This document shows, piece by piece, positions 1,333 to 35,047 of a stretch of DNA of 35,047 nt. The DNA is taken from assembly GCA_964637655.1 (NCBI GenBank), contig CAZWUZ010000008.1:1-35047 (forward strand), written 5' to 3'. A program made the translations under genes and the position numbers. The notes beneath the pieces are model-generated. The model was not told the origin of the DNA. It did not search any database and saw only the letters and a list, made by a program, of their open reading frames with translations. The stretch's first letter is position 1. The number at the start of each line of letters is the position of its first letter. This DNA is from an uncultured bacterium (GTDB taxonomy: Bacteria > DAOPZR01).

Positions 1333-3200
1333 ACCGCCTGCGCACGCGCACGCTGCGCGGGCGCGTCACCCTGTTCTTCGTCGGGTTCGCTGTTGCCCTG
1401 CTCATTGTGCCCGGCTTTTTCTTCTACCGCACGGCGACCTCGTACCTTGAACGCGAACTGGCGGACCGGCTCAAACTCGGGGCGGGACTCGCCGCGCTGC
1501 AGTTCGAGGGAGAGACCCTGCTGCCGCTGCGTGCGGGTGACGAGACCACGCAGCGCTATGCCCTGTTGCAGGCGCGGCTGCGCCGGGTGCAGCAGGCGAC
1601 GGGCGCGGCGGAACTCCGGCTGATCGATCCGCAGCGGCTGACGCTGGTGAGCGTCGACGCCACGGCGGTAGGCGTCCCCTGCCGGCTGGCGGATGCGGAT
1701 GCGGTCGAAATCGGCCGGGCCATGGCTACGGGTGAGCCGCAGGTCAGCCATTTGTACGGGGACGGGAGCACCTACCACATGGCGGCGTATGCGCCGGTGC
1801 GCGCGGCGGACGGGACGCCGGTGGCGCTGCTGCGTCTTGAAGGCAGCCCGCTGATCAGCGATTTTCTCGCCGCTTATCGCGACCGCATCCTGCTTTTTGC
1901 CGCGGTGGTGCTCTGCCTGTCACTGCTTGTCAGTCGCGTTCTCTCGCGCCAGGTCATCGAGCCGGTGCGCGAACTGGCCGCGGGGGTGCGCCGGCTCAGC
2001 GAGCGCGACTATGCCCCGGTGCGGGTCAGCGCGCGTGACGAACTCGGGTTTCTCGCCGAGGAATTCAACCGCATGGCGGAGACCATCCGCGGGCACGCGC
2101 AGGAACTGACGGCGTTGCACGCGCAGGCGGCGCAGCGCGCCGCTGATCTCGAGGTCTATAACCGCTATATCCTCGAAACCATCCGCAGCGGTATCGTCGC
2201 CTGCCAGCTCGACGGCACGGTGACGGTGGTCAACCGCAGCGCGCGCGCCATGTTCGCCCTGACTGCGGAGGTGGCCGGACAGCCGCTGGCGGAGGTTTTC
2301 GCCGCCTGCCCGGAACTTGGCGACCTGCTGACGGCGACGCTGGCGCAGCGCGAAAATCAGGTGCGCGATGACCTGGCCCTGACCGTGGCCGGGCGGCAGC
2401 GGCATTTCGACCTGCAGACCTCGCTGCTGCATGACGGGTCGGGCCGCCTGCTCGGGGTCATCCTCATGGCGGCGGAGACGACGCGCCTGCGCGAACTGCA
2501 GGAGGAAATCGAGCGCACCGAGCGGCTGGCGGCGGTTGGCACGCTGGCCGCGGGCGTGGCGCATGAAATCCGCAATCCGCTCTCGGGCATCAGCGGGTTC
2601 GTCGAACTGCTGCAGCGCAAGGTGACCGGAAACGAGGCGGCGCTGCGGCTCACCGATAAGGTGCGCGCTGAGATCAGCCACCTCAACCGTATCGTAACGG
2701 ATTTTCTGCAGTTTGCCCGCCCGCAGGCGCTCAATCTCACCCGGGTCGATCTGGCCGCCCTCTGTGCCGGTGCCGTGGCGGTTACCGCGGCGCATGCGGC
2801 GGAGCGCGGAGTGGCGCTGCGCCTCGCGCCGGGCCCGCCCGTCTTTTTGACGGCGGATGGTGAACAGTTGCGGCAGGCGCTGGTCAACATCCTGCGCAAC
2901 GCCGTCGAGGCAAGCGCAGCGGGACAGGCAGTGGTGCTCGCCTGGACGCCGGACGGGATGTTCGCGACCATCACGGTGCGCGATGATGGCGCGGGGATGG
3001 ACAATGCCGCGCGCAAGGCAATCTTCAACCCGTTCTTCACCACCAAGGATGACGGAACCGGGCTGGGACTGACGGTGACGCATACCATTATCGAGCGGCA
3101 TGGCGGGCACATTCGCGTCGATTCCGAACCCGGGCGGGGGACGGTGTTCACGGTGGCGCTGCCGCTGGCGGGCCAGCCCGGAAGAAAGGCACTGGTATGA
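1329..3200 (+). CDS. Membrane sensor histidine kinase (TM-periplasmic domain-TM, HAMP, PAS, HisKA, HATPase_c), NtrB/AtoS/PilS-like
   Basis: Two hydrophobic segments, HAMP (DELGFLAEEFNRM), PAS-like segment (ILETIRSGIV...VNRSA), H-box AHEIRNPL, N-box NILRNAVEA, DDGAG, IFNPFFTTK, GTGLGL. Start placed at ATG 1329, which overlaps the helicase stop as ATGA; the ORF track starts at 1320. Confidence 0.95.
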   Translation: MNRLRTRTLRGRVTLFFVGFAVALLIVPGFFFYRTATSYLERELADRLKLGAGLAALQFEGETLLPLRAGDETTQRYALLQARLRRVQQATGAAELRLIDPQRLTLVSVDATAVGVPCRLADADAVEIGRAMATGEPQVSHLYGDGSTYHMAAYAPVRAADGTPVALLRLEGSPLISDFLAAYRDRILLFAAVVLCLSLLVSRVLSRQVIEPVRELAAGVRRLSERDYAPVRVSARDELGFLAEEFNRMAETIRGHAQELTALHAQAAQRAADLEVYNRYILETIRSGIVACQLDGTVTVVNRSARAMFALTAEVAGQPLAEVFAACPELGDLLTATLAQRENQVRDDLALTVAGRQRHFDLQTSLLHDGSGRLLGVILMAAETTRLRELQEEIERTERLAAVGTLAAGVAHEIRNPLSGISGFVELLQRKVTGNEAALRLTDKVRAEISHLNRIVTDFLQFARPQALNLTRVDLAALCAGAVAVTAAHAAERGVALRLAPGPPVFLTADGEQLRQALVNILRNAVEASAAGQAVVLAWTPDGMFATITVRDDGAGMDNAARKAIFNPFFTTKDDGTGLGLTVTHTIIERHGGHIRVDSEPGRGTVFTVALPLAGQPGRKALV

Positions 3201-4576
3201 AACGGATCCTGGTGGTGGATGACAACGCGGCCATGTGTGAGGTATTGGCCGAGGCGCTCGGGGAGAAGGGGTATACGGTCGAGACGACGACGAGCAGCGA
3301 ACAGGGGGCGGATTTCCTCCGCCGGCGCGGCTACAATGTGCTGATCACCGACCTCAAGATGCCCGGCATCGACGGGCTGGAACTGCTGCGCCTTGCGCGG
3401 GCGGAAAATGCCGCGCTCGAAGCGATCATGATCACCGCGTTCGGCACGGTCGAAAGCGCGGTCGAGGCGATGAAACGCGGGGCCTCCGATTTCATCCTCA
3501 AGCCGTTCTCCGTTGCGGAAATAGAACTGAAGGTGGAAAAACTGCTCGAACGGCAGCGCCTGCAGAGTGAAAACCTGCTGCTGCGCGAGGAACTGCAGGA
3601 GCACTTCAATTTCGCCGAACTGATCGGGCACAGTGTGGGCATGAAAAAAATCTACGACCTGGTCCGGCGCGCCGCCCCGACCGATTCGCCCGTGCTGCTG
3701 CGCGGGGAGACCGGGACGGGCAAGGAACTCGTTGCGCGTGCCCTTCACGCCTACTCGCGCCGGGCCAAGCGGGCCTTTGTCAAGGTCAACTGCTCGGCCA
3801 TCCCGCACGGCCTGCTGGAGAGCGAACTCTTCGGCCACGAAAAAGGAGCGTTTACCGGGGCGGTTGCACGCAAGGACGGCCGCTTTATCGTGGCTGATCA
3901 GGGGACAATTTTCCTCGATGAGATCGGTGAGATGCCGGCCGCGATGCAGGCCAAACTGCTCAGGGTACTGCAGGATGGCGAGTTTATGCGGGTGGGCGGC
4001 ATAGAAACAATCAGTACGGATGTTCGTGTTATTGCCGCAACCAACAGGAACCTTGAGGACGACATACGCAGCGGGGTATTTCGTGAGGACCTGTTCTTCA
4101 GGTTGAACGTCATTCCCATGGAATTGCCGCCACTTCGTGAGCGTCGTGAAGACATCCCTGATCTGATGGCATATTGCTTGCATAAATTCAATATATTGTG
4201 TCGTAAACAGGTCAACAGCATAGACGAAGAGGTGCGCCGCGGGTTTCTGAATTATGCCTGGCCAGGCAATGTGCGTGAAATGGAAAACATTATCGAACGG
4301 GCTGTTGTGCTGTGTAACGGGGAGCGGATCAGCACGGAAAACATCCCCGTGGAAATTTTGACGAGCACTGCCAGAAAACCGGCAGAAAATCAGCGATACG
4401 AATTGTCGGGTGGCTTGACGGCGCTGGTTGAGCAGTTTGAAAAAGAAATCATCGAGCACGCCTTGCGGGAAAGCGAAGGCAGTCAGATGCGGGCAGCAAA
4501 ACTGTTGCAGTTGAACCGGAGCACGCTGCAGTATAAACTGCAGAAATACGGCATTACCGGCAGGAATGATGCGTAG
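3197..4576 (+). CDS. Sigma-54-dependent response regulator, NtrC family (REC + AAA+ + Fis-type HTH)
   Basis: REC (ILVVDD...ITDLKMPGIDG...KPF), Walker A GETGTGKE, ESELFGHEKGAFTGA, Walker B IFLDEIGE, FREDLFFRLNV, WPGNVRE, C-terminal HTH AAKLLQLNRSTLQYKL. ATGA overlap with the kinase stop. Confidence 0.97.
   Translation: MKRILVVDDNAAMCEVLAEALGEKGYTVETTTSSEQGADFLRRRGYNVLITDLKMPGIDGLELLRLARAENAALEAIMITAFGTVESAVEAMKRGASDFILKPFSVAEIELKVEKLLERQRLQSENLLLREELQEHFNFAELIGHSVGMKKIYDLVRRAAPTDSPVLLRGETGTGKELVARALHAYSRRAKRAFVKVNCSAIPHGLLESELFGHEKGAFTGAVARKDGRFIVADQGTIFLDEIGEMPAAMQAKLLRVLQDGEFMRVGGIETISTDVRVIAATNRNLEDDIRSGVFREDLFFRLNVIPMELPPLRERREDIPDLMAYCLHKFNILCRKQVNSIDEEVRRGFLNYAWPGNVREMENIIERAVVLCNGERISTENIPVEILTSTARKPAENQRYELSGGLTALVEQFEKEIIEHALRESEGSQMRAAKLLQLNRSTLQYKLQKYGITGRNDA
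4167..4182 (+). promoter_or_regulatory. Candidate sigma-54 (-24/-12) promoter inside the activator CDS
   Basis: TGGCATATTGCTTGCA, with GG at 4168-4169 and GC at 4180-4181 exactly 10 nt apart. Close to the TGGCACG-N4-TTGCW consensus and located in a local AT-rich patch. Confidence 0.5.
4369..4384. promoter_or_regulatory. Imperfect palindrome TGCCAG-AAAA-CCGGCA, candidate enhancer (bEBP binding site)
   Basis: Matches the palindrome at 16250-16265 at 14 of 16 positions. Confidence 0.35.
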
Positions 4577-5450
4577 CGTTCTGATCGCACTGATCCTGAT
4601 TGTCTCCGTCAACGTGATGCCGGCGGTGTCGGCTGACGATCTGGCCACCCAGTGGCAGACCATCAGCCGCATCGAGGAAAAACTGGCCGGGCTGAACCGC
4701 GAGGCGGCGACGGTCAGGGCGCAGCTCGACGAAACGGGGCGGAAGATTGCGGCGCTCAAGCAGGACGGAGTGTCACTGCTCGAGGAAATACGCCTGAACG
4801 TGCTGCTGCGCGAGAGCCAGGACCAGGCCCAGCAGCTGGCGACGCTGGAAGGGACCATCCGCACGCTGGCGGACACGCGGCTGACGCTGGTCGATCGCGC
4901 GCTGCTGGCGGTCAACCGGGAACTGGCGCGGCGCGCGGAGCGGCTCAAGGCGTTGCAGGCGGCGGGCGACCATGCCGGGTTCACCCAGCTGCTGACGGAA
5001 CTGGTCGGCTATGACAACTTCAAGCGGGCGCTTGAGGAGCGGCGCGAACTGCGCCTGGCGCGCCCGGCGGTGACGCTGCAGGTGGCGGACTGGAATTCCC
5101 CCGCGGAAGTGCGGGAAAAAGCGCTGATTCTGCGCGACGAGATCCGCGGCGCGGAGCGCGAGCTGGCGCTGACGCGCACGCGCATCAGCGAGGGACTGGC
5201 GGAGATCCGGCAGAAGGAGGAGATCATCCGCTTCGTGCGCGACCTGCAGCAGCTGCGCAGCGAGCGCGTGTCGGTGGTCGACCCGGCGGTGATCCCCCAT
5301 CTCGAGCGCGAAGCGGAACGGCGGCGCGGGGAGATCGCGCAACTGCGGCAGTACCAGGGGACGCTGACGGTGGAACTGGCGCGCCTGCGCGAGCAGGGCG
5401 ACCGCCTGACGGCGTACGCGGACCGCATGGAACGGGAACTGCTGCGGTGA
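4566..5450 (+). CDS. Hypothetical exported coiled-coil protein
   Basis: N-terminal signal peptide (MMRSVLIALILIVSVNVMPAVSA), then a Leu/Glu/Arg heptad-rich helical body. Overlaps both neighbouring genes. Alternative start at ATG 4569. Confidence 0.85.
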   Translation: MMRSVLIALILIVSVNVMPAVSADDLATQWQTISRIEEKLAGLNREAATVRAQLDETGRKIAALKQDGVSLLEEIRLNVLLRESQDQAQQLATLEGTIRTLADTRLTLVDRALLAVNRELARRAERLKALQAAGDHAGFTQLLTELVGYDNFKRALEERRELRLARPAVTLQVADWNSPAEVREKALILRDEIRGAERELALTRTRISEGLAEIRQKEEIIRFVRDLQQLRSERVSVVDPAVIPHLEREAERRRGEIAQLRQYQGTLTVELARLREQGDRLTAYADRMERELLR

Positions 5451-8400
5451 AAAAACTTCTGCTGGCCGGCCTGCTGCTGCTGTGGGCGTCCGCGTCTGTC
5501 GCGGCTCCGTGGTGGGAGGTGCATTTCACCGAGCAGCGCAGCAACTCCAGTTCGGCCTACGAGCAGGAAATATACGACTTCATCATGCAGGCCAACAGTT
5601 CGGTCTGGGTGACCAGCTATACCTGGGGCAACTCCTCGCACAACAAGCTGATGCTGGCGCTGAACGAGTTATATGCGCGGGGGCTGGATATACGGCTGGT
5701 CGGCGATAACACGTCGGCGTTCAACTCGTACATGGACGACTATGAAAAGCGCACTGACGCTGCCGCGGCTGACGCTGCCAACCTGCACCACAACAAATTC
5801 ATCGTCCTCGACTACAATACTGCCAACGCCAGGGTGATGACGGGTTCGACCAACTGGACCGACCCCGCCTACGCCACGCAGAACAACGACATCCTGGCCA
5901 TCAACGACCGCAACGTGGCCAACGCCTACGGGCGTGAATTTCTCGAACTGTGGACGGGCAACTTCCGCAGCGGCCCGACCGATGTCAAGGACTACACGGT
6001 CAGCGGGCACGCGGTCAACCTCTATTTCGCGCCCGAGGACGACCCGGGCAACACCTACCTGTCGAACCTGTTGCGCAATGCCGAGCACTGTATTTTCTTC
6101 CTGTCGTTCAACCACCAGCTGACCGACCTGATGAACCGGGCCATCGAACTGAAGAACCGCGGGGGGATCGTCGAAGGGGCCTACGAATCGATTTACGGCA
6201 GCATGTTCAACGGCTACATGGCGGCAGGCATCGACATCCGCCAGGACGGTAATACCGACCATCTGCACAACAAGCTCTACATCGTCGACCTGGAGACGGT
6301 GGCGACCGGGTCGATGAATCACTCGAACACGTCCAGTACCAGCACCGACGAAAACGAACTTTTCATCCACGATTTCCGCCTCGCCCGCGAGTACATGAAG
6401 CACTTCCACTTCTGCTACGACCAGGCGAGCCCGCAGGTTGCCACCCCGACACACGAGGACAACGCCCCGGCCATTGTCACCAATCTCGGGGCGGTCGATA
6501 CCCCCAATGACACGGGGCAGAGCATCACCGTGTCGTGGACCGGGGTGAACGACGCCGACCTTGCCGGCTACTACGTGTATATCAGCACGTCAGCCATCGG
6601 CAGCGTCGAGAACCTGATCCCCGAGAAATTCGTGCAGGGGGCGACGTCGACCACGCTCACCACCTACAACCAGGACGACCCCATCAGCAATAACACCGAT
6701 TACTACGTCGCGGTGGCGAGTGTCGACTGGCATGGCAACGAGAATTACAGCTGCCCGACCACCGGCCCGGTGCAGGCCACGGGCGTGATTACCGGCGCCC
6801 GCCCGTCCGGCACCATCGACTTTTCCGATTCCACCAGTCATATTGCCGGCGAGGCCTCGACCCTGGTCGCGGTCATCCACAACGACACGGCGGCGGTTTC
6901 CGCCATTGCCACGCTCACCATCAGTTTCGGTTCCGCGTCAGCCGGACTGAGCTTCACCCCGGTGGCGGCCGGCAGTCAGACCCCGCCCGCGGGCTGGACC
7001 GTGGTTGCAGTCACGGACACCACCATCACCTACAGCGCCCTGCAGGCGGGCAACCGGATCGCCGCGGACGGCAGCGAGACGTTCACCATTGCGGTGACCA
7101 ACCCGGTGACCGCGGGGACCAGCAACGCTATCACGCTTGACGTGGTGGCGGCCAACAGCGAAGTAGCCGCCGGGGTGACGCTGAGCAGCGGCCTGGTCAC
7201 CATCGCGCCGAGCGCGGTCCCGCTCTTTACGCTCGCCTGGGGCGCGGGTTCGAGCCAGCGCGGCGGCAAAAACGCGACCCTCGCGGTGGGTATGCATAAC
7301 GAAGCGGGGGCCGGCACCTCCATCCGCGAGGTGACCTTCTCGTTCGGCGCGGGGAACGGCGCGTTTACCGCGCGCGGCAGCGATGTGCAGGTCGCGCCGG
7401 CCGGGTGGATGGCGAGCGGGTCGGGCAACACCCTGACCTTTACCGCGTCCGATACGGCCTACTATCTCGCGGCGGGTGACACGCTGACACTGTCGCTCGC
7501 GGTGATCAACCCCGGCATCAGCCGGGCGAGCGATGTCATCACCGCGACGACCACCGACCGCAACGGGCTGCAGGTTCCCGGGGTGACGGTCGGGTCACTG
7601 ACCGTGCAGGCCACGGACGGCATCGTTTTCAACGAGTTCATGTACAACCCCGTCGGCAGCGACGTGTTGTTCGAGTACGTGGAACTCTATAACCGTACCC
7701 CGGTGACGGTGGAACTGGGCGGCTGGCAGATGAGCGCCGGCGGCGCGGTGACGACCATTCCGGCCGGCACGACGCTGGCCGCCTACAAGTTTATCGTCAT
7801 CGCCAGCACGCTGTCGCGCGGCACGGCGGGCGATGAATTCTACGAGTCGTATTCCTCGCGCTACGGCAACGGTGACGGCATCTGGATTGTCGATCCGACG
7901 ACTCCCGGCGAGGACTATCAGGTCATTGACGGCACTGATTTCGACCTCAATGATGATGCCGACTTCCTGACCCTGACCAGCGCCGATGCGACCTTCACGA
8001 CGACCGTCCGCTACAACGATGCGCTCAACGAGTGGGGCGGGGCGGACGGCACGGGCGCCTCGCTCGAGAAGATCGACCCGTCGATCGATGACGTCGGGAT
8101 CGTCGAACTCGACGGCCCCAACTGGGGCGCGCAGCAGATGACCAGCACCTACCCGGACGGCACCCCGGGTGTCACCAACAGCATTGCCGTGTCGCAGGTG
8201 CCGCCGGTGACCGGCCTGTCAGTCCGTTCGGTGACGGAGAATTCCGTCACCCTCGCCTGGTCGCCGCTGACGGAGTTTGCCACGTTTGCCGGCTACCATG
8301 TCTACTACGCCACGGCCAGCCCGGTGACGGCGGGGGCACTGGTCTGGAACGCGGTGCAGGACCCCAACCTGGCGCTCATGGCGACCGGGCGCACCACGGT

Positions 8401-11400
8401 CACCGGACTGACCGCCAACACCACCTACTACTTCCGTCTCATCGCGCAGTCGACGCTCTCCGGGCCGGGTGACGTGAGCAGCGCGGATGAAGTGAGCACG
8501 CTGACAACCGTCACGACGGAGGTCACGGTCAACTACCTGTATGACGGCGTGCGGTATGCCACCACCTACGACGGCAGCGCCATCCTGCGCGACGTCGGGA
8601 CGACCATCAACCTCCGCCTGGCGTCACCGCCGGCCAATGCCGGCTCGGTCATGGTCTGGTATGACGTCGGGGCCGACCCGGACGGCAGCGCCACCGGCAA
8701 CAGCAGCGACCGGGCCGCCTATGCCGCGGGCAACGGCGTCACGTGGGATGCGGTCATTCCCGGCAACGATGCGGAAATCAACGACGGGGCCGAAGTCAGG
8801 TTCCTCGTCCAGATTGACGGTATCCCCTATTTCAACAACGGCCTGCCGTGGAAGTACCGGGTGGATGGCGGCATCAGCGCCAGCTTCACCGACCTGACCG
8901 CGGCCGGGGTCGGGTACGGGCGCATCGAACTGCGCTGGACCCCGGTGACGAACGTTCCCGATTTCGGCCAGTACCGCATCTACTACACCGCCGGGAGCGA
9001 GACCATCAGCATTCTTTCGCCGTCGTGGGATGCGGTGGATGATGTGATGCTCGCGCACAGCGCCACCGGCGCGACCGTCGTCTCCGGCCTGCAACCCGGC
9101 GGCATCTATCGCTTCCGCATCGTCGCGGTCGACCAGTACGGCAACGAATCGGATTTTGCCACCTCGAACGAGGCGACGGGTACGGCACAGCACGGCACGG
9201 TGATCATCACCGAGTTCGCGCCCGCAGGGGACACGCTCAGCAGCGCGCTGCCGTGGGTGGAACTCTACTGCGTCGAGGGGACGCAGGCGATGAACGGGTG
9301 GAATCTTACCGACCTGAACGGCAATACCGTCCCGGTCGGCGCGGTGACCATGAGCGCCGGCGAGTACCGGGTGGTCTACCTGACCGACTCGACGTTTTTT
9401 GCCGGTGACGGGGTGCTGGCGCTCGACGCGGACATGGATACCACCAACGGTTCGTATGCCGACGCGGTGGTCTGGACCGACGGCAACGGGGCCTTCAGCG
9501 CCGCCGACGCGGCGGATGTGCGCGCGCTTGGTGCCGGCAACTGGGAGTACAGCGTTTCCTATGCCGCGGCCACCCCGTGGATCAGCGAGTACTTCTCCGT
9601 TCCGTACACCGCCGGCGGTTTTTATTCCCTGGTGCGCGCGGAAATCGATGTCTACCGCGACCAGAACACGCGCAGCGACTGGCGCCTGCAATACACCCCG
9701 AGCAAGGGGGGGAGCAACGGGGTCAGCACGGTCGCCCTGCAGTCGTTTACGGACGGCTACCGCAGCGCTTATCCCGACGGCTACACCTACTTCCAGGATA
9801 CCACGGCCACGGCGGTGTTCGGGTTCGGCACCGCGCCGGCCGACAGCACCAACGTCCGCCTGTATTATAATTACGATGTCGTACCGACGGGCGACCCGGC
9901 GGGCGCGGACTCCTGGGTACTGCTGGCACCGCAAAGCGACCTGCTCACCTGGGGCGGGAGTTTCCCGGGGACCGGCAATCCCGCGGCCAACAGCGGGAAA
10001 CGCGTCAATTTCATCATCGCCGCCGACGGGGTTCCCTATTACCGCGACAATGTGCCGGGCGTGGCGTGGAGCTACCGCCTTGACGGCAGCGCGCCGGGTG
10101 CGGTCGGCGGCTTCAGTGTCGAGGGGGTGACGCAAAGCGCGGCCATCACCGCGTGGTCGCCGCCCGCGGTCATCGATGATTTCGCCACCTACCGCGTCTA
10201 CTACGCGGTCGCCCCGGGCCCGGGAACCACGGCCGCGGCGTATGTCGACAAGGCCACGGTGAGCGAACTGCACTACCGGACGACAGCGGGCGCGGTCATC
10301 GGCGGCCTGACCGCGGGGCAGACGTACGTGCTCGCCATTGCCGCGGTTGATGAACGGGGCAATGTCGGCGCGCTGTCGGGGATGGATCCGGCGGCCATCC
10401 GGCCGACACTGAGCGTGACGGCGCGGACCGTGAGCGACACGGCCGGCAACCGCGTGAACGGTGGTTTTGCCGGCAGCGACCGCCTGCGCGGGACCGACCT
10501 GCAGGTCGAGGTCTGGTTCAGCGAGGCCCCGGCGGCGACCCCGGTGCTCTGGCGGGACGGGATGGCGGCACCCGACGGGCCGGGCGGGAGCGCCAACGAC
10601 CGTTCCGGAACGATGACTGCGGGCAGCGATGCCCGGCTGTGGACCGCCACCATCCCCTGCACGGACGCCTCGATCGTCAACGACACCACGCTGCAGCTGG
10701 TGTTCAGCGTCAATACCACGGTGGTGCGCAACGGCAGCGTGCCGTTCAAGGTGTCTATCGATACCACCGCGGCACCGCTCAGCGCGCCGGCCGGGTTCTC
10801 CGTGGTCGGCACGCTGGCGGGCGGGGCGACCCTGTCGTGGAACCCCATCGCGGCGGCGGCTGATTTTGCCTCGTATCGCGTCTACTATGGTGCGGCCCCC
10901 GGCCCGCTGAGTGCGGGCGCGGCGTATATCGATAAGGCCGCGTACGCCGCGCTCGGCACGGTGACCACCGGCGGTGTCACCGTCACCGGACTGAACTTCG
11001 GCGACACCTACGTGTTCGCGGCGGCGGCAGCGGACGCGCTCGGCAATATCACCGCGCTGTCGAACCTCGATACCGGGCTCACGCTGGTGTCGCAGACCGT
11101 GTCGTCGCTGCAGCTGTCTGATACCGCGGGCAATACCGTGACCGCGGCTTTCGACGGGTCGCAGGCGCTGCGCCGTGCCGATGTGCAGGTCAGCATCGTG
11201 CTGGCCGAGGACGCGGCGGATACCCCGGTGGTCTGGTTTGACGTCGGGGCGGTGCCGGACGGCCCGGGCGGGGCCAACGGCGCCGACCGCAGCGTGACCA
11301 TGACCCGCACCGGTGACGCGAAAAACTGGGCAGCGACCATCCCGTATACGGACGGGGAGATGGTCGACGGCGCCACCGTGCAGGTGATCATCTTCACCAG

Positions 11401-14400
11401 CGGCGCGGCGCTGACTGCCAGCGGGCAGCCGTGGAAGTACCGCGTTGACGGGCAGTCGGGACCGGCCCCGGTGCTGGTGAGCACTGCCGGCGACGCCAAT
11501 TCGACGACGGTTATCCTCTCCTGGACGCCGGTCAGCGGCACGGATTTCGGTGCCTACGTGGTCTACTACGCCCGCGCGGCGGCGGTGACGAAAGCCGACA
11601 GCCAGTGGACGCAGGCCAAGGACGCGAATCTGGCGGAAACGGGAACCAGCGGCACGTCGGTGCGCGGTCTGGCGGCGTCTGACACCTACACCTTTGCCGT
11701 GGCCTGGCGTGACCGCGTCGGCAACGAATCGGCACTGTCGAACGCGCTGTCGCGCCTGACCAACGCGATGGTGCCGGCGGACGACCCGGCCAGCGACGGA
11801 GTGAATATCGCCCACCGGCTCGACGGGACGGAAGCGCTGCGCGACACCGATATTACCGTCACCATGCTCCTCTCTTCGCCGCCGACGGCAGCCAACTCCG
11901 CGTGGATTTACTATGATGTCGGCGGCTATCCGGACGGGCCGGGCGGGAGCAACAGCGAGGAACGTCAGGTCGCGCTGATTGATTCGCCGGACAACGATCC
12001 GCATACCTGGACCGCGGTCATTCCCGGCAGCGACCCGGAAATCGCCGACGGGGCACTGGTGCGCTATGTCGGTGCGGCGGACGGGTTTATCCTGACCAAT
12101 GGCGGCAACCCGTACGCGTTCCGTATCGACAGCAGTGCGCCGCCGGCAGCCGGCAGCCCGGGTCTCATCGATAACAGCAGTTCGCTGCTCGTCACCTGGT
12201 CGGCAGTCAGTGCCGCCGATTTTGCGGAATACCGTGTCTACTACAGCACGTCATGGCCCGCCCGCGCGGGGCTGGTGCGCGGCAGGGCGGCGGATATGTC
12301 GCTGGGGAGTGCGGGCACCAGCGGCACGACGCTCTCCGGCATCGACCCGGCGCAGAACTACTATGTGAACATTGCCACGGTGGATGTGGTTGGCAATGAG
12401 CGGCTGCTGGCGGACGACCTGATCCTCTACCGGCAGGCACCGGGCGCGGCCGCGGCCATGGCCTATGCCGCCGGCACGGCTACCGGCAGCGGCGAGGTTT
12501 ACCCGGGCCAGGCATGGCCGGTGGCGGTGCGGGTTGCCGACGCGGCCGGGCTGCCGGTGCCGGGTGCAGCGGTGAACTTCGCGGTGCTTGCCGGTGACGG
12601 AACGTTGTCGACCTCGGCCGCGAGCACCGGACTTGACGGCGTGGCGCGGGTGCTACTGACTGCCGGCGCGCCGGCAGCGGCAACGGTGGTCCGCGCCACT
12701 TCCGGCGGTATGGCGCCGGTTGCTATCAGCGTGCTGGCTACGCAGCCGCCCCCGGTGGCGCTGCGCCTGCTTATGCCGGCGTCGGCCAGCACTGATGATA
12801 CGGTTGCGGTGACCGTCGAGGCGCTGGCGGCTGACGGGACGGTTGACGCCGGCTGGCAGGGCAACGTGACGCTTACGGCCGCGGAACATGGCGCGCATGC
12901 CGGCACGCTGCGCGGGACGTTGACGCGGACCCTGGCCTCCGGCCGCGGCACCTGGCTGCTGGGCAACAGCGAGGCGGAGGCGGTGACGCTGACCGCGACG
13001 AGTGCGACGCTGACCCCGGTGAGCATCGCGGCAGCGCTGCCGTTCACGGCGGGCGCGCCGGCGCAGCTGCGCCTGACTGCGCCCGCCACGGCGGTTGCCG
13101 GCAGTGCCGCGGCCGTGAGTGCGACGGTGCATGATGCCGGCGGCAATCCCTGCCTGACGGATGGCACGACGGCAGTGACGGTGACCGCCGGCGGCAACGC
13201 GTACGTGTCGCTGGCCGGGCCGCAGCGCGTCACCGGCGGCGCGCTGGCGCTTACCGTGCATGATCTGACCGCGGAAACGGTGACGGTGCAGGCCGCGGCG
13301 GCCGGCCTGCCGGCGGCGGCGGCGCACCTGACATTCATCCCGGCGGCGGCGGTCAAGGCGGTGGCCACACCGTGGCTCAGTGTGCCGGCCGGCGAAACCG
13401 CTCCCGTGACCGTGGACATACGCGACGCGTACGGCAACCGCGTGACCGGTGATGCCGGGCGTGCGGTCGGCCTGCAGCTGAGCGGCACGGCGCAGGTGTT
13501 GAGCAGCACGCTGACCGCGGCCGGGCAGGCCCGGTTTGTCATAACCGATACGTACGCCGGTGATATTACCCTGACGCCATCGTCGGCCGGTCTGACGGCG
13601 GTCGGCGGCACAGCGCACTTCTACGCCGGTACCGACACGCTGAGCGCGGCCACGGCCCTGGCCTTTGACGCCGCTGCCTACACTGCCACCGCCGGCAGTG
13701 CGCGGCAGGTGACGGTGCGGGTGCTGGATGCGCGCGGGCAGACGGAGGCCGCGGATAACGGGCGGAGCATCACGCTGACGACGGCGGGTGCTGCGCAGGC
13801 CGCGGCTGCGGTCGTGGCGACCGTCGACGGCCTGGCGGTGTTCACGGTGACTGACACCGTGGCGGAGAGCGTGCTGCTCACGGCCACGGCGGCGGGACTG
13901 CGCAGCGGCACGGCGACACTGGCAGTGGCGCCGGCGGCAGCGGCGGCAGTGCGCGCGACCGCGCCGGCGAATGTCGACTGCAACGCGGTCGCCGCGCTGG
14001 CGCTGGCGCTGACCGACGCGCACGGCAATGTTGTCAGCGCGGATAACAGTTCGCTGGCTGACCTGGGGGCGGCGCGCGGCACGGTCGGCAATGCCGGACC
14101 GCTCACCGCCGGGCAGCGGACACTGACCATCACGACGCCGCAGGCGGGTCCGCTCGCGGTCGTGCCGCGTATCGGCGCGCTGGCCGGCGAGACGCTGACC
14201 ATCAACGTGCTGAGCGGCGCCCCGGTGCGCCTCGCCGCGCTGGCGGCGGACACGGCGCTGCTCAACGCGGCGAGCCCGCTGGTGCTCGAAGTGCAGGATG
14301 CGGGGGGCAACCGCGTGGCGACGGACAACGGGCGGCAGGTGATGCTGCTGCTCGGCGGTAATGCGACCTCGCCGGCACAGGCGGGGGCCTACACGGTTGA

Positions 14401-16081
14401 CGGGCGCATTACCACCACCATTACCGGACTGGGCGCGGGTGACATCACGGTCTACCCGATGGCCACCGGCCTGAGCACCCTGAGCGATACGCTGCGCGTG
14501 GTGGCGCCGCCACCGGCGCCGGCGGCCGCGCGGGTCGTGGCGCTGTGCGGCGCGGGGGTGATCTCCATCGACGATACCGCCAGCGTGCGCGTCGAGGTGC
14601 GGGCGGCGGATGGCACGCTGCTGATGACTGATACGACGACGGTGGTGCGGCTTGCCGCACCCGCCGGGGTCAGGGTGGTGCCGGCAGAGCAGGTGGTGAG
14701 CGGCGGCAGTGCGACCTTCGCGGTCGGCACGGACAATGTGGGCAGCATCACGCTCACGCCGGCGGCGGGTGCGCTGGCGACGACGGGTGCCACGCTCGAG
14801 GTGCGCGCCGGTGTGCCGGTGGCGGTGCGTCTGGCGGGCCCGGCCACGGCTGTTGCCGGCGGCGGCGCGGCGGCACTGGCCGTCAGGATTGAAGACCGCG
14901 CCGGTAATGTCTGCGACGGGGCCTGGACGGTGGCGCTGGCGGCCACGGGCAGCGCGACCGTGCCGGCGACGGTCACCACCGCGGCCGGACTGGCCATCGT
15001 GGCGGTGCAGGACGCGGTGGCGGAAACAGTGACGGTGACGGCGACGGCGGCGGGGATGAGCGGCGGCAGCAGCAGCGTGCAGTTTGTGCCGGCGACCCCG
15101 CAGCAGCTGACGCTGACGGCGCCGGCCACCGCCGCGTACGGCAGCACGGTACCGGTGAGTGTGACGGTGCGCGACGGGGCCGGCAATCCCGTTGCGGTGA
15201 CCGGCAGCGTGACGCTGACAGTTGACGCCGGCAGCGTGACCCCGGCGACGCTGGCGTTGAGCGGGGCGACGGCGACGGGGAGTGTGCAGTTTACGCGGAC
15301 CGGCGTGCTGCACCTGCGCGCGGTGTGGAACACGCTCACCGCGACGGCGGCGGTGCAGGTGCTGGTGCCGCCGCAGACGGCGGCAACCATCGCGGCGGCG
15401 GCACAGGTCACGGTGAAACTGCCGGCCGGGGTCATCGGCGATTCCTGCGTGCTCGACGTGCGCACGGGGGCTGACGCGGCGGCAGGCCTGTCGCTCGGCG
15501 GCATTGTCGGTGAACCGGTCGAATTATTCCTCTATGACGCAGCCGGCGACACGGTAACGGCTGACTTCGCCGCGCTGGTGACGGTGGAAGTTGCCTATGC
15601 CGATGCCGACCAGAACGGGATGGTCGACGGCACGAACATCGCCGAGCAGACCCTGCAACTCTGCCGCTGGGAGAACGGGGCCTGGGTGGTGGTGCAGGAC
15701 GGCGGGCGTAATGCCGCCGATCCGGTGCGCAATGTCGTGGTTGCTGACCTCAAACATTTCTCGCAGTATGCCATCCGCGTGTCGGCGGATACAGGCGCGC
15801 CGGGGGGCGAAATCATCGCCTACCCGAATCCGTGGAAATCGACCTACGCCAGCGAGCGCATCGTCTGGGCCAACGTGCCGACGGGCGTGCCGGTGCGCCT
15901 GGAAATCTACACCATCGGCGGCGAGAAGGTCATCGACGGCGAACTGACGCTCGGGGCGAATCAGCGCATGGAGTGGGACCTGCGCAACCGCGGCGGCGGT
16001 ATGGTGGCCAGCGGCATCTACATCTACCGCATCAGCGGCGGCGGGGTGGAGAAGATCGGCAAGATTGCGGTTATCAGGTAG
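5447..16081 (+). CDS. Giant secreted protein, 3544 aa: PLD-superfamily (two HKD) nuclease/phospholipase head, lamin-tail, FN3 and Ig-like repeats, ZU5-like domain, T9SS-type C-terminal sorting-like domain
   Basis: GTG start overlapping the upstream stop (GTGA); signal peptide MKKLLLAGLLLLWASASVA; HNKFIVLD...TGSTN (5789) and HNKLYIVD...TGSMN (6266); lamin-tail-like IVFNEFMYNP...EYVELYN and VIITEFAP...WVELY; about 7 FN3-like units (W.P...DF..YRVYY...GL...Y.F...A.D..GN); C-terminus YPNP...IYTIGGEKV...WDLRN...VASGIYIY...KIAVIR. Confidence 0.93.
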   Translation: MKKLLLAGLLLLWASASVAAPWWEVHFTEQRSNSSSAYEQEIYDFIMQANSSVWVTSYTWGNSSHNKLMLALNELYARGLDIRLVGDNTSAFNSYMDDYEKRTDAAAADAANLHHNKFIVLDYNTANARVMTGSTNWTDPAYATQNNDILAINDRNVANAYGREFLELWTGNFRSGPTDVKDYTVSGHAVNLYFAPEDDPGNTYLSNLLRNAEHCIFFLSFNHQLTDLMNRAIELKNRGGIVEGAYESIYGSMFNGYMAAGIDIRQDGNTDHLHNKLYIVDLETVATGSMNHSNTSSTSTDENELFIHDFRLAREYMKHFHFCYDQASPQVATPTHEDNAPAIVTNLGAVDTPNDTGQSITVSWTGVNDADLAGYYVYISTSAIGSVENLIPEKFVQGATSTTLTTYNQDDPISNNTDYYVAVASVDWHGNENYSCPTTGPVQATGVITGARPSGTIDFSDSTSHIAGEASTLVAVIHNDTAAVSAIATLTISFGSASAGLSFTPVAAGSQTPPAGWTVVAVTDTTITYSALQAGNRIAADGSETFTIAVTNPVTAGTSNAITLDVVAANSEVAAGVTLSSGLVTIAPSAVPLFTLAWGAGSSQRGGKNATLAVGMHNEAGAGTSIREVTFSFGAGNGAFTARGSDVQVAPAGWMASGSGNTLTFTASDTAYYLAAGDTLTLSLAVINPGISRASDVITATTTDRNGLQVPGVTVGSLTVQATDGIVFNEFMYNPVGSDVLFEYVELYNRTPVTVELGGWQMSAGGAVTTIPAGTTLAAYKFIVIASTLSRGTAGDEFYESYSSRYGNGDGIWIVDPTTPGEDYQVIDGTDFDLNDDADFLTLTSADATFTTTVRYNDALNEWGGADGTGASLEKIDPSIDDVGIVELDGPNWGAQQMTSTYPDGTPGVTNSIAVSQVPPVTGLSVRSVTENSVTLAWSPLTEFATFAGYHVYYATASPVTAGALVWNAVQDPNLALMATGRTTVTGLTANTTYYFRLIAQSTLSGPGDVSSADEVSTLTTVTTEVTVNYLYDGVRYATTYDGSAILRDVGTTINLRLASPPANAGSVMVWYDVGADPDGSATGNSSDRAAYAAGNGVTWDAVIPGNDAEINDGAEVRFLVQIDGIPYFNNGLPWKYRVDGGISASFTDLTAAGVGYGRIELRWTPVTNVPDFGQYRIYYTAGSETISILSPSWDAVDDVMLAHSATGATVVSGLQPGGIYRFRIVAVDQYGNESDFATSNEATGTAQHGTVIITEFAPAGDTLSSALPWVELYCVEGTQAMNGWNLTDLNGNTVPVGAVTMSAGEYRVVYLTDSTFFAGDGVLALDADMDTTNGSYADAVVWTDGNGAFSAADAADVRALGAGNWEYSVSYAAATPWISEYFSVPYTAGGFYSLVRAEIDVYRDQNTRSDWRLQYTPSKGGSNGVSTVALQSFTDGYRSAYPDGYTYFQDTTATAVFGFGTAPADSTNVRLYYNYDVVPTGDPAGADSWVLLAPQSDLLTWGGSFPGTGNPAANSGKRVNFIIAADGVPYYRDNVPGVAWSYRLDGSAPGAVGGFSVEGVTQSAAITAWSPPAVIDDFATYRVYYAVAPGPGTTAAAYVDKATVSELHYRTTAGAVIGGLTAGQTYVLAIAAVDERGNVGALSGMDPAAIRPTLSVTARTVSDTAGNRVNGGFAGSDRLRGTDLQVEVWFSEAPAATPVLWRDGMAAPDGPGGSANDRSGTMTAGSDARLWTATIPCTDASIVNDTTLQLVFSVNTTVVRNGSVPFKVSIDTTAAPLSAPAGFSVVGTLAGGATLSWNPIAAAADFASYRVYYGAAPGPLSAGAAYIDKAAYAALGTVTTGGVTVTGLNFGDTYVFAAAAADALGNITALSNLDTGLTLVSQTVSSLQLSDTAGNTVTAAFDGSQALRRADVQVSIVLAEDAADTPVVWFDVGAVPDGPGGANGADRSVTMTRTGDAKNWAATIPYTDGEMVDGATVQVIIFTSGAALTASGQPWKYRVDGQSGPAPVLVSTAGDANSTTVILSWTPVSGTDFGAYVVYYARAAAVTKADSQWTQAKDANLAETGTSGTSVRGLAASDTYTFAVAWRDRVGNESALSNALSRLTNAMVPADDPASDGVNIAHRLDGTEALRDTDITVTMLLSSPPTAANSAWIYYDVGGYPDGPGGSNSEERQVALIDSPDNDPHTWTAVIPGSDPEIADGALVRYVGAADGFILTNGGNPYAFRIDSSAPPAAGSPGLIDNSSSLLVTWSAVSAADFAEYRVYYSTSWPARAGLVRGRAADMSLGSAGTSGTTLSGIDPAQNYYVNIATVDVVGNERLLADDLILYRQAPGAAAAMAYAAGTATGSGEVYPGQAWPVAVRVADAAGLPVPGAAVNFAVLAGDGTLSTSAASTGLDGVARVLLTAGAPAAATVVRATSGGMAPVAISVLATQPPPVALRLLMPASASTDDTVAVTVEALAADGTVDAGWQGNVTLTAAEHGAHAGTLRGTLTRTLASGRGTWLLGNSEAEAVTLTATSATLTPVSIAAALPFTAGAPAQLRLTAPATAVAGSAAAVSATVHDAGGNPCLTDGTTAVTVTAGGNAYVSLAGPQRVTGGALALTVHDLTAETVTVQAAAAGLPAAAAHLTFIPAAAVKAVATPWLSVPAGETAPVTVDIRDAYGNRVTGDAGRAVGLQLSGTAQVLSSTLTAAGQARFVITDTYAGDITLTPSSAGLTAVGGTAHFYAGTDTLSAATALAFDAAAYTATAGSARQVTVRVLDARGQTEAADNGRSITLTTAGAAQAAAAVVATVDGLAVFTVTDTVAESVLLTATAAGLRSGTATLAVAPAAAAAVRATAPANVDCNAVAALALALTDAHGNVVSADNSSLADLGAARGTVGNAGPLTAGQRTLTITTPQAGPLAVVPRIGALAGETLTINVLSGAPVRLAALAADTALLNAASPLVLEVQDAGGNRVATDNGRQVMLLLGGNATSPAQAGAYTVDGRITTTITGLGAGDITVYPMATGLSTLSDTLRVVAPPPAPAAARVVALCGAGVISIDDTASVRVEVRAADGTLLMTDTTTVVRLAAPAGVRVVPAEQVVSGGSATFAVGTDNVGSITLTPAAGALATTGATLEVRAGVPVAVRLAGPATAVAGGGAAALAVRIEDRAGNVCDGAWTVALAATGSATVPATVTTAAGLAIVAVQDAVAETVTVTATAAGMSGGSSSVQFVPATPQQLTLTAPATAAYGSTVPVSVTVRDGAGNPVAVTGSVTLTVDAGSVTPATLALSGATATGSVQFTRTGVLHLRAVWNTLTATAAVQVLVPPQTAATIAAAAQVTVKLPAGVIGDSCVLDVRTGADAAAGLSLGGIVGEPVELFLYDAAGDTVTADFAALVTVEVAYADADQNGMVDGTNIAEQTLQLCRWENGAWVVVQDGGRNAADPVRNVVVADLKHFSQYAIRVSADTGAPGGEIIAYPNPWKSTYASERIVWANVPTGVPVRLEIYTIGGEKVIDGELTLGANQRMEWDLRNRGGGMVASGIYIYRISGGGVEKIGKIAVIR
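8516..12420 (+). repeat. Five copies of an ~120-aa module, each followed by an FN3-like domain (protein-level repeat)
   Basis: Recurring motifs DG...LR.., W(Y/F)DVG..PDG(PGG), W.A.IP..D.EI.DG and PW.YR(V/I)D at approximately 8516, 9725, 10410, 11090 and 11785. Confidence 0.8.
12440..15400 (+). repeat. Ala/Thr/Val-rich tandem Ig-like (Big_1/invasin-like) repeats, roughly 10 units of ~100 aa
   Basis: Recurring V.V.DA.GN.V..D...V.L...G.A and D.VAE.V.VTA.AAG patterns. Confidence 0.7.
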
Positions 16082-16090
16082 CCGCGGCAG

Positions 16091-16119
16091 TTGACAATTG
16101 CCATCGGTTGTGATATAAG
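16091..16119 (+). promoter_or_regulatory. Sigma-70-type promoter for tRNA-Asp
   Basis: TTGACA at 16091-16096, 17-nt spacer, TATAAG at 16114-16119 with an extended -10 TG at 16111-16112; about 40 nt upstream of the tRNA. Confidence 0.8.
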
Positions 16120-16157
16120 ATTCACGCTTTCGGGAAACTGAAGAGCGGCAGCACAAT

Positions 16158-16234
16158 GGGGGCGTGGTGCAGTGGTTTAGCACGTCGGCCTGTCAAGCCG
16201 AAGGTCGCGGGTTCAAATCCCGTCGTCCCCGCCA
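16158..16234 (+). tRNA. tRNA-Asp (anticodon GTC)
   Basis: Full cloverleaf: acceptor GGGGGCG/CGTCCCC, D stem GTGC/GCAC, anticodon stem TCGGC/GCCGA with loop CTGTCAA (GTC at 16192-16194), T arm GCGGG-TTCAAAT-CCCGT, discriminator G and encoded CCA. Confidence 0.97.
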
Positions 16235-16249
16235 TTTTTTTGTATCGGT

Positions 16250-16265
16250 TGCCGGAAATCCGGCA
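16250..16265. promoter_or_regulatory. Inverted repeat TGCCGG-AAAT-CCGGCA: candidate upstream activator sequence, or a weak terminator hairpin for the tRNA transcript
   Basis: GC-rich inverted repeat at the start of an AT-rich spacer, about 140 bp upstream of a -24/-12 motif. No clean U-tract follows it directly. Confidence 0.45.
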
Positions 16266-16403
16266 GTATGTTCTTGTGCTTTTCAATATAGGGGATTGTG
16301 TGAAGTTTTTTTTTGCGAATATATTCCACTAACAATCGTTTATCGCTATAAAAAATAATAAAATATGCAAAAAAATATCACTGAAAATACATGAATTAGC
16401 AAG

Positions 16404-16419
16404 AGGTATGTTTTTTGCT
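16404..16419 (+). promoter_or_regulatory. Candidate sigma-54 (-24/-12) promoter for the 5976-aa gene
   Basis: AGGTATGTTTTTTGCT, with GG at 16405-16406, N10, GC at 16417-16418 and a TTGCT -12 box; about 60 nt upstream of ATG 16482, which has SD GAGGAG at 16469-16474. Confidence 0.5.
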
Positions 16420-16481
16420 AACATACATCTATATTGGTATCTGCAAATACCATTAGCTGATTTTGGCTGAGGAGAAGCATT

Positions 16482-34412: not shown

Positions 34413-34423
34413 GGAGGATGGCC

Positions 34424-35047
34424 ATGCACACCGGGAAGAAGCGGGGGAGAGCGATGAAGGGACTGACTCTGATGGCGGCGGTGGCACTGCTGCTGGCAGC
34501 GGCGCTGCCGGCGGCGGCGGCCGACTTCCTCGTGGGGGCGCGCCCGCTGGGCATGGGGAGCGCCTACACGGCGATGGACGGTGACGTCAACTGCGTGCCG
34601 TGGAATCCCGCGGGACTGGCGACGGTGAACACGTTGCAGTTCACCAGTATGTACGCCGACCTCTACGAACTGAACTTCCTCAAGGAGAGCAACTTCGCGC
34701 TGGCGGTGCCGCTCGGCCGCGACCGCGGGGTGGCGGGTATCGGCTACTCGGCGCTGTCGATCGACTACGACTACCCGTCGTACTTCAACCTCAACACGCT
34801 GACCTGGCGCGACAGCGAACTCCGCCTGTCGTATGCCCGCCCGCTCAACAGCACGGTCAATCTCGGGGCGACGTTCAACTGGCTCTCCACGGTCTCCAAT
34901 GTGCAGGGGGGGCAGATGCAGGGGTACTCGTTCGACCTCGGGGTGACTGGTCAGGTCATGCCGCAGCTCACCCTCGGGGCGTCCTTCACCGATCTGCTCG
35001 CGCGCCGCAACTGGGACAGCGGTACGGATGAAAAGCCCGGAACCGGT
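34424..35047 (+). CDS. PorV/PorQ-family (FadL-like) outer-membrane beta-barrel protein, 3'-truncated at the window edge; absent from the ORF track
   Basis: Hand translation from ATG 34424 (SD AGGAGG at 34412-34417; alternative in-frame ATG 34454): MHTGKKRGRAMKGLTLMAAVALLLAAALPAAAADFLVGARPLGMGSAYTAMDGDVNCVPWNPAGLA...SELRLSYAR...VNLGATFNW...GYSFDLGV...LTLGASFTDL. It has a signal peptide, the GAR..GMG.A..A...D....WNPAGL motif and amphipathic strands, with no stop before 35047. Confidence 0.88.
   Translation, partial: MHTGKKRGRAMKGLTLMAAVALLLAAALPAAAADFLVGARPLGMGSAYTAMDGDVNCVPWNPAGLATVNTLQFTSMYADLYELNFLKESNFALAVPLGRDRGVAGIGYSALSIDYDYPSYFNLNTLTWRDSELRLSYARPLNSTVNLGATFNWLSTVSNVQGGQMQGYSFDLGVTGQVMPQLTLGASFTDLLARRNWDSGTDEKPGTG

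Follow-up and report, generated by a model that had tools for sequence, protein, structure and literature searches.

Introduction

According to a study of Desulfovibrio vulgaris (PMC3333781), the sites of NtrC-family response regulators are mostly palindromes with arms of 4–6 bp and spacers of 3–8 bp, often located at the regulators' own or adjacent operons. When 21 sigma-54 regulators were assayed there by DNA affinity purification on chip (DAP-chip), binding was to the regulator's own operon in 8 cases and to an adjacent operon in 7. Here, we describe a 16-bp palindrome that occurs twice in a 35,047-bp stretch of bacterial DNA, the entire contig C8 of a draft genome (G000), referred to in the following as the window. 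One copy lies inside the gene for an NtrC-type sigma-54 activator, referred to as the regulator, and the other in the spacer between two genes for giant proteins. Each copy is found beside a candidate sigma-54 promoter. The initial annotation had proposed that the palindrome is the binding site of this regulator and defines a regulon of both giant proteins. We reach a similar reading with moderate confidence: the palindrome is probably an enhancer of the type bound by bacterial enhancer-binding proteins (bEBPs), through which the local regulator would control both giant-protein genes. The part of the earlier proposal that is supported is a selected element paired with motifs that face the giant genes. 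Binding by the regulator, promoter activity, the transcription start sites, co-regulation of the giant genes and enhancer action at about +184 are predictions from the DNA.

Like the upstream activating sequences (UASs) of the NtrC family, such as those of NtrC at glnAp2 and those in the D. vulgaris study (PMC3333781), the element is a dyad with 6-bp arms and a 4-bp spacer, lies 100–200 bp from a -24/-12 motif, occurs at the regulator's own and the adjacent operon, and would define a small regulon. Unlike those UASs, there is a single site per promoter rather than a tandem. Moreover, one copy is downstream of its promoter, within the activator's coding sequence, and binding is predicted. In the motif tables searched from the same study, the word TGCCGG appears twice, in unrelated rows, CCGGCA never appears, and the present sequence is absent.

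Conserved intragenic sigma-54 promoters with long 5′ untranslated regions (UTRs) that feed the next gene are described for Escherichia coli, from nagB to nagE and from yqeC to yqeB (PMC4591121). For Myxococcus xanthus, PMC7910581 describes intragenic sigma-54 promoters as well as intragenic Nla28 and Nla6 sites, some of them internal to operons; the Nla28 half-sites there lie upstream of -24/-12 regions, unlike the site in the regulator gene here. As in the cases set out in these texts, the putative activator site of the present locus is intragenic, but its host gene is the activator's own and the site lies downstream of the promoter. A natural sigma-54-type enhancer downstream of a promoter has reportedly been found at Bacillus subtilis rocG (Belitsky and Sonenshein 1999), where RocR is said to act from beyond the end of rocG through an element shared with rocABC. 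There, too, one regulator would serve two neighboring units, reportedly through a single shared intergenic element about 1.5 kb away, whereas the present locus has two copies, of which one is coding and about 0.2 kb downstream. Each ingredient has thus been described already: sigma-54 promoters within genes, activator sites within genes, and enhancers downstream of their promoters. The combined layout, in which promoter and enhancer both lie in the activator's own gene with the enhancer downstream, is unusual among known cases. A word search of open-access text, which is weak evidence, returned no report of an enhancer inside its activator's own gene; papers returned on enhancers downstream of sigma-54 promoters were mostly on eukaryotes.

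The setting is a candidate phylum with two genomes. If our reading is correct, the locus would constitute a minimal regulon, in which a single kinase and a single activator govern two giant secreted proteins through two promoters and one 16-bp site. It would also be a rare, clean natural example of regulatory DNA in a regulator's own coding sequence with the enhancer downstream, and would show how far coding sequence bends to carry control signals. Given the small size of the site and of the helix-turn-helix (HTH) domain, binding could be assayed directly, with no need to cultivate the organism.

Results

Two copies of the palindrome in each of two genomes

The elements on which the argument rests are the following:

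4369–4384, no strand: site 1, TGCCAGAAAACCGGCA, in codons T391–A396 of the regulator gene
16250–16265, no strand: site 2, TGCCGGAAATCCGGCA, non-coding, 15 nt past a tRNA-Asp gene
4167–4182, + strand: P1, a candidate intragenic sigma-54 promoter, TGGCATATTGCTTGCA, in codons M324–K330 of the regulator gene
16404–16419, + strand: P2, a candidate sigma-54 promoter, AGGTATGTTTTTTGCT, with GGTATGTTTATTGCT as its counterpart in the sister genus
3197–4576, + strand: the regulator, an NtrC-type sigma-54 activator with REC, AAA+ (with GAFTGA), AAA-lid and Fis-type HTH domains, identified by Pfam and alignment

The draft genome that holds the window comprises 3,985,905 bp in 485 contigs, with a GC content of 0.655. 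The sole other genome examined for the phylum was the 3.6-Mb genome of a sister genus (G001), whose contig C6 is syntenic over the whole locus, with 67% DNA identity across 16.6 kb. Two more ortholog lineages of the regulator (P0001, 95% identical, and P0003, 78% identical) were compared as protein only, which gave four ortholog lineages in total. A metagenome scan with the alignment of giant protein 1 yielded 270 pattern matches, none of which was confirmed, and a scan with the back-translated peptide AYCLHKFN matched one contig, 99.94% identical to G001. Three DNA sequencing runs yielded short, low-depth contigs; in one of them, X6, a relative at ≈90% identity spans P1.

The two 16-mers were found where the initial annotation had placed them, identical at 14 of 16 positions and each followed by G. 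Both lie in AT-rich patches, with GC contents of 0.50 (4001–4500) and 0.44 (16001–16500) against 0.655 for the genome. The reported distances of about 190 and 140 bp to -24/-12 motifs also hold, as the gaps are 186 nt from the motif at 4167–4182 and 139 nt to that at 16404–16419. Site 1 was likewise correctly assigned to the linker between the AAA and HTH domains, at the end of the AAA-lid match (residues 314–397) and ahead of HTH_8 (residues 411–451). The earlier caution that half-sites are common was fair, with 11,440 occurrences of CCGGCA in G000. A genome-wide search for TGCCRG-W4-CCGGCA, on the other hand, returned 2 matches in 3,985,905 bp, both of them the sites described here, so the worry that the motif is frequent and random in coding DNA is not borne out. 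Within the window, the pattern TGCCRGWWWWCCGGCA matched only at sites 1 and 2, with 0.00 matches expected from 100 shuffles.

At both orthologous places, G001 carries the identical perfect palindrome TGCCGGAAAACCGGCA, again followed by G. The whole G001 genome has 2 exact, 0 one-mismatch and 22 two-mismatch copies of this sequence, and the exact copies are those at the orthologous places. From the 22 two-mismatch copies, we estimate that ≈0.02 exact copies would occur by chance, compared with the 2 observed. In G000, three copies lie within one mismatch of the consensus (sites 1 and 2 and C85:1313) and 18 have two mismatches. The reversed sequence, used as a control, gave 3 and 0 matches at up to two mismatches in G000 and G001, respectively, compared with 21 and 24 for the palindrome; the 21 G000 sequences show that look-alikes are favored by composition. 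In addition, a genome-wide scan found at least 120 single, scattered matches to the exact 17-mer in unrelated taxa.

The dyad is a perfect 6-4-6 palindrome in three of the four copies in the two genomes, the fourth, site 1 of the window, having one arm mismatch. Most likely, the ancestral state was a perfect palindrome at both places, and the window copies later acquired a G to A change in one arm (site 1) and an A to T change in the spacer (site 2). The palindrome is confirmed as an observation and is far beyond chance. That both genera have exactly two copies, in matching locations, supports the view that it is a selected, locus-specific cis element.

Pairing of the palindrome with sigma-54 motifs

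The strict sigma-54 motif TGGCAY-N5-TTGCW occurs 12 times in G000, P1 being one of the occurrences. By our reading of the open reading frame (ORF) table, at least 8 of the 12 are located just upstream of an ORF with high GC content at third codon positions, suggesting that the motif marks real promoters in this organism. The loose motif GGYAY-N5-TTGCW occurs 65 times, including P2 (GGTATGTTTTTTGCT). At this frequency, 0.010 motifs are expected within 300 bp of a given site, and both palindromes have one, on the + strand and facing the giant genes. P1 and P2 both have the predicted form of a sigma-54 promoter (GG-N10-GC), on the + strand and upstream of the giant-gene units. The co-occurrence of the palindrome with -24/-12 motifs therefore extends to both copies, and in G001 both the motifs and their spacing are conserved. 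We estimate the chance that both copies would pair with sigma-54 motifs at conserved spacing at about 1e-4. As a control, we used 80 unrelated genome loci that contain the exact 17-mer; within 300 bp, these had 0 strict and 2 loose motifs.

With up to three mismatches allowed, G000 contains 202 sites, 7 of which have a loose sigma-54 motif within 400 bp (2.7 expected); 2 of those 7 are sites 1 and 2, and the others include sites on C105, C20, C368, C106 and C183. Of the further candidates for membership in the regulon, those on C105, C20, C368 and C85 were rejected. The C105 site has the same 156-bp spacing, but no counterpart in G001. The C20 site is located at a putative start site and also has no counterpart there, and that on C368 is inside an ORF. 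C85:1313, with one mismatch, has no sigma-54 motif nearby, and G001 has no copy of it within one mismatch. A possible third site in the window at 5197, TGGCGGAGATCCGGCA, with two mismatches to site 2, reads TTGCAGAAATCAGGCA in G001 and is thus not conserved. On contig C20, we also observed a 117-nt stretch (13732–13848; L142 1733–1849) that is 87% identical to a part of contig C246 of G001; by eye, it is a terminator-like hairpin adjoining a minus-strand tRNA gene.

Site 1 and P1 within the regulator gene

In the last third of the regulator gene, two runs are identical to G001 at 19 or more of 20 positions: 4367–4386, which comprises the palindrome, and 4166–4191, which holds TGGCATATTGCTTGCA. 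P1 itself is identical at 16 of 16 positions, and the distance from the start of P1 to site 1, which lies downstream, is 202 bp in both genomes. At site 1, 19 of 20 nt are conserved amid an otherwise variable linker, and the linker that follows is variable and has indels. Among positions that encode the same residue in both genomes, the codons were identical at 5 of 5 positions at the palindrome and at 6 of 6 at P1, against a background of 166 of 341 (0.49) for the gene; nowhere else in the regulator gene is a run of identical codons as long as that at P1. The GC content of the last third is 0.51, compared with 0.64–0.73 in eight paralogs, and the low-GC dip is common to G001, where it is deeper (0.34–0.43).

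At the protein level, the peptides AYCLHKFN and A(G/R)KPA were kept in all four ortholog lineages, and neither was found in the three aligned paralogs. The residue that follows A(G/R)KPA is E, D or G, and the codons of all three begin with G. This pattern is consistent with constraint at the level of the DNA, although it is not proof of it.

By the -24/-12 convention, transcription from P1 would start at about 4193, leaving a leader of ≈373 nt to the gene for a 294-amino-acid (aa) protein. No terminator-like site was found in 3900–4700, and neither strand carries a T run at site 1. We also considered whether P1 might produce a truncated, HTH-only protein, but the in-frame Met codons after ≈4193 (4280 and 4487) are Leu in G001, and this was rejected.

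Site 2, the tRNA-Asp gene and P2

Site 2 is located in the spacer that follows one further feature:

16158–16234, + strand: tRNA-Asp(GTC), between the two giant genes

The distance from the end of the tRNA to the palindrome is 15 nt in both genomes. An Rfam search of 15900–16600 found only the tRNA. The spacer from the tRNA to the ATG of giant gene 2 is 247 nt here and 249 nt in G001, and its visibly conserved blocks are a T7 run following the tRNA, the palindrome, a short block at a sigma-70 promoter of G001, GGTATGTTT(T/A)TTGCT, and the ribosome-binding site (RBS); the rest could not be aligned between the genera. From the palindrome to the GG of P2, the spacing is 155 bp here and 156 bp in G001, and from the GG to the ATG, it is 77 and 78 bp, respectively. 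Transcription from P2 would accordingly be predicted to start at about 16430, with a 5′ UTR of ≈52 nt, placing the center of site 2 ≈172 bp upstream.

The possibility that site 2 is the tRNA terminator had been raised. A simple terminator scan flags the window copy, which forms 8 pairs and is followed by a weak tail in which 5 of 8 nt are T. The G001 copy has no T tail and was not flagged; a canonical terminator (CACCGGC..GCCGGTG, with an 8-bp stem, then CTTTTTTGTT) is found 5 nt further on. Since G001 has this separate terminator, the palindrome is probably not simply the terminator of tRNA-Asp, and what is left of this possibility is a side role in the window.

Three other observations concern this spacer. 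The tRNA-Asp gene has a conserved promoter of its own, of the GCGGCAGTTGAC...TATAAG type (TTGACA-type), that begins directly past the stop codon of giant gene 1 (16090–16234), and this is the only tRNA-Asp among the 42 tRNAs found in the draft genome. In G001, a perfect sigma-70 promoter (TTGACA-17-TATAAT, 12/12) is located between the palindrome and terminator on one side and P2 on the other, at 14027–14055 of locus L014, equivalent to G001:C6 34027–34055. All that the window retains of it is degenerate, and a search of 15900–16700 gave no sigma-70-like site; giant gene 2 may thus have tandem promoters in one genus only.

The regulator as the candidate binder

The regulator matched the Pfam families Response_reg (95 bits), Sigma54_activat (234 bits), AAA_lid_14 (82 bits) and HTH_8 (54 bits). 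Its ortholog in G001 is 77% identical, with the GAFTGA motif visible in the alignment. As the protein falls below all NCBIfam equivalog cut-offs (AtoC, 468 vs. 714; NtrC, 444 vs. 559), it is assigned to no named subfamily. Both genomes encode rpoN, with scores for the DNA-binding domain of 188 bits in G000 and 170 bits in G001. The helix-turn-helix, NR(S/T)TLQYKLQK(Y/H)GI, is nearly the same in the two genera, and no G000 paralog is more than 44% identical in the HTH region. That a two-copy palindrome is kept beside conserved sigma-54 motifs in the sister genus suggests that it is most likely the docking site of the regulator.

Proposed mechanism

In our proposed mechanism, the consensus TGCCGGAAAACCGGCA plus the following G would be an enhancer (UAS) to which the regulator's Fis-type HTH domain binds as a dimer. 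The adjacent HAMP-PAS kinase would phosphorylate the regulator, which would then assemble on the palindrome, loop the AT-rich DNA and remodel the sigma-54 RNA polymerase waiting at the two promoters. With its enhancer in a classical upstream position, at about -172, P2 would drive giant gene 2 and a PorV-like gene. P1, within the regulator's own coding sequence, would drive the 294-aa gene and giant gene 1 through the leader, and its enhancer would lie ≈184 bp downstream of the start, in the AAA-lid/HTH linker, which is the only loosely constrained coding segment nearby.

A more far-reaching version of this idea, which we put forward tentatively and hold to be possible rather than probable, is that the activator ORF has been molded into a full sigma-54 control region. 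The promoter would be accommodated in the lid helix (AYCLHK) and the enhancer 202 bp downstream in the lid/HTH linker (AGKPA), with AT-rich coding DNA in between and the enhancer acting from inside the leader. Together with the classical copy 11.9 kb away, one two-component system would then co-ordinate two giant surface proteins of the type IX secretion system (T9SS) type.

Several points weigh against the regulator acting through this palindrome on both giant genes. The DNA comparison rests on two lineages that are kin, so that conservation amounts to one comparison. Site 1 is downstream of P1 and within the transcribed region, which is a rare position for natural enhancers. Since AYCLHK and AGKPA are kept in all orthologs, constraint on the protein may account for part of what is conserved at site 1 and P1. 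A bEBP query had more than 40 matches in G000, so the binder could be another activator. P2 deviates from the consensus at 3 of the 12 specified positions, and the perfect sigma-70 promoter of G001 means that giant gene 2 need not depend on sigma-54 in that genus. From the tRNA to giant gene 2, the window has no terminator-like hairpin other than site 2. An IHF consensus was looked for between site and promoter and was absent from all four spacers. NtrC-type enhancers usually, though not universally, have two or more adjacent sites that nucleate an oligomer; no second palindrome site, with up to three arm mismatches, was found within 90 bp of any of the four copies.

Alternative explanations

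One alternative is that the palindrome is a protein site for a different binder, which could be a different one of the more than 40 bEBPs, or else a repressor or a roadblock that insulates the giant-gene units. The evidence for a selected DNA element fits such a protein equally well, there are at least 40 bEBP query matches to choose from, and a single site per promoter is in keeping with it. We nevertheless consider it unlikely. Copies in the regulator's own gene and in the next operon are the commonest layout of the NtrC family in the D. vulgaris study (PMC3333781), both copies adjoin sigma-54 motifs, which require a bEBP, and the HTH region is not shared above 44% identity by any paralog. 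The presence of only two copies in each genome excludes a global factor.

The palindrome might instead act as a nucleic-acid hairpin. Site 2 would then be a terminator or 3′-processing hairpin for tRNA-Asp and for transcripts reading through from giant gene 1, and site 1 an attenuator, processing or stability element of the mRNA. All four copies can fold, with RNA energies (4-nt flanks included) of -8.0, -11.1, -13.2 and -10.3 kcal/mol, site 1 of the window being the one at -8.0. Site 2 of the window resembles an intrinsic terminator of a tRNA gene in being a GC-rich hairpin 15 nt past the tRNA with a weak T-rich tail, it is the only such site ahead of giant gene 2, and its fixed distance from the tRNA in both genomes agrees with such a role. 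It differs from tRNA terminators in having a stem of 6–8 bp instead of ≈8–13 bp, and the same sequence recurs within a gene without a T tail. Among the 41 listed folds downstream of G000 tRNAs, at least 8 look canonical, with stems of ≈8–13 bp and an immediate T run, and none of these carries the palindrome. Furthermore, a conserved T7 run is already present behind the tRNA-Asp, and in G001 the palindrome lacks a T tail, with a separate canonical terminator coming after it. Site 1 lacks a T run and has no terminator-like site around it, and its G to A arm change breaks a pair and is uncompensated. These features of G001 and of site 1 mean that a pure hairpin role fails to explain the data, and it would leave unexplained why the same primary sequence, loop included, is found at two unrelated places beside sigma-54 motifs. 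We regard this explanation as quite improbable.

One outside case bears on a leader hairpin. In a Desulfotignum metagenome-assembled genome (L034, 2960–3045), the 17-mer is found ≈20 nt after a sigma-54-like motif, GGCATGGGGGTTGCA, and right before a start codon, a placement between the two that would suit a leader hairpin. A bEBP gene 43% identical to the local regulator lies divergent to this region, and no other outside case has this context. This arrangement is probably due to chance, as 2 of the 80 control loci had a loose motif.

That the palindrome has no function at all, with site 2 as incidental spacer, site 1 as a by-product of the TAGKPA peptide and codon bias, and their likeness as chance, is very improbable and already strongly disfavored, for although GCCGG-rich words are favored by composition, the exact 17-mer occurs in at least 120 unrelated genomes, AGKPA is conserved in 4/4 orthologs and the 16.6-kb alignment contains 52 runs that are at least 19/20 identical, the two exact G001 copies occupy the very places that G000 predicts, site 2 lies in non-coding DNA within an otherwise unalignable spacer, the sigma-54 pairing at conserved spacing is improbable by chance, and C105 and C20, the near-matches with a sigma-54-like motif nearby that were compared with G001, lack conservation.

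We also considered, and rejected, the idea that the two copies, which are in direct orientation, serve site-specific recombination: the arms are only 6–7 bp, no recombinase gene lies between the copies, and excision would cost the draft genome the sole tRNA-Asp gene found in it.

Genes of the locus

The remaining features of the window are as follows:

1320–3200, + strand: sensor histidine kinase (HAMP-PAS-HisKA-HATPase), from the ORF list and Pfam
4566–5450, + strand: 294-aa protein, signal-peptide and coiled-coil-like, of no family; overlaps the regulator gene and giant gene 1
5447–16081, + strand: giant protein 1, 3544 aa, with a signal peptide, PLD/NucT-like, LTD, fn3 and Big_1 domains and a C-terminal T9SS type A sorting domain
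16482–34412, + strand: giant protein 2, 5976 aa, with a signal peptide and Big_13, FlgD_ig/CHU_C and VWA_4 domains
34409–35047, + strand: PorV/PorQ-like outer-membrane barrel gene, truncated where the contig ends; overlap with the end of giant gene 2

All genes discussed here are on the + strand, and the window opens with the end of a UvrD-like gene, which the kinase gene overlaps upstream, as it does the regulator gene downstream. The kinase is AtoS-like, with a score under the cut-off. Successive overlaps of a few bases connect the kinase, activator, 294-aa and giant-1 genes, which can therefore be read as one operon. The 294-aa protein is 65% identical to its G001 ortholog and was found only in these two genomes, G000 and G001.

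At its N-terminus (window 5447–6000), giant protein 1 has two PLD-like (PLDc_2) domains with a weak likeness to the NucT nuclease, so that it may be a very large nuclease or phosphodiesterase, either secreted or at the surface. The T9SS type A sorting domain (TIGR04183) at the end of the protein (15722–16078) scored 25.6 bits, with a cut-off of 23. The G001 ortholog of giant gene 1 (G001:C6 22998–33753, in L014) is open in two overlapping frames, 22998–29216 and 28978–33753, the result of either a frameshift or an assembly error.

The N-terminal 1173 aa of giant protein 2 have 42% identity to the G001 ortholog. Over the first 3.5 kb of giant gene 2 (16482–20000), the GC content is 0.44–0.54 here, compared with 0.55–0.61 in G001, and the DNA could not be aligned with G001 until ≈19948. 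This region is either evolving fast or was replaced in one lineage. The barrel gene scored 48.1 bits for PorV/PorQ, under the cut-off of 90; the gene is truncated.

Other sigma-54-like motifs

A third -24/-12-like motif, TGGAACGGGAACTGCT (5428–5443), is located at the end of the 294-aa gene. It is conserved, as TGGAACGGGAATTGCT, in G001, and coincides with the longest identical-codon run of the 294-aa gene (DRMERE). It was rejected as a promoter for giant gene 1: the predicted start at ≈5454 falls within the signal-peptide codons, past the GTG start at 5447, so the motif cannot serve the form with the signal peptide. A silent sigma-54 binding site is one possibility; another is that the overlap of RBS and coding sequence accounts for the conservation.

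Elsewhere in G000 (C277, 2739–2818), another bEBP gene is followed by a 23-bp palindrome, AAAAGTATT gtcat AATACTTTT, with a strict sigma-54 motif, TGGCATCACGATTGCA, ≈40 bp further on. This looks like a separate unit of activator, site and promoter.

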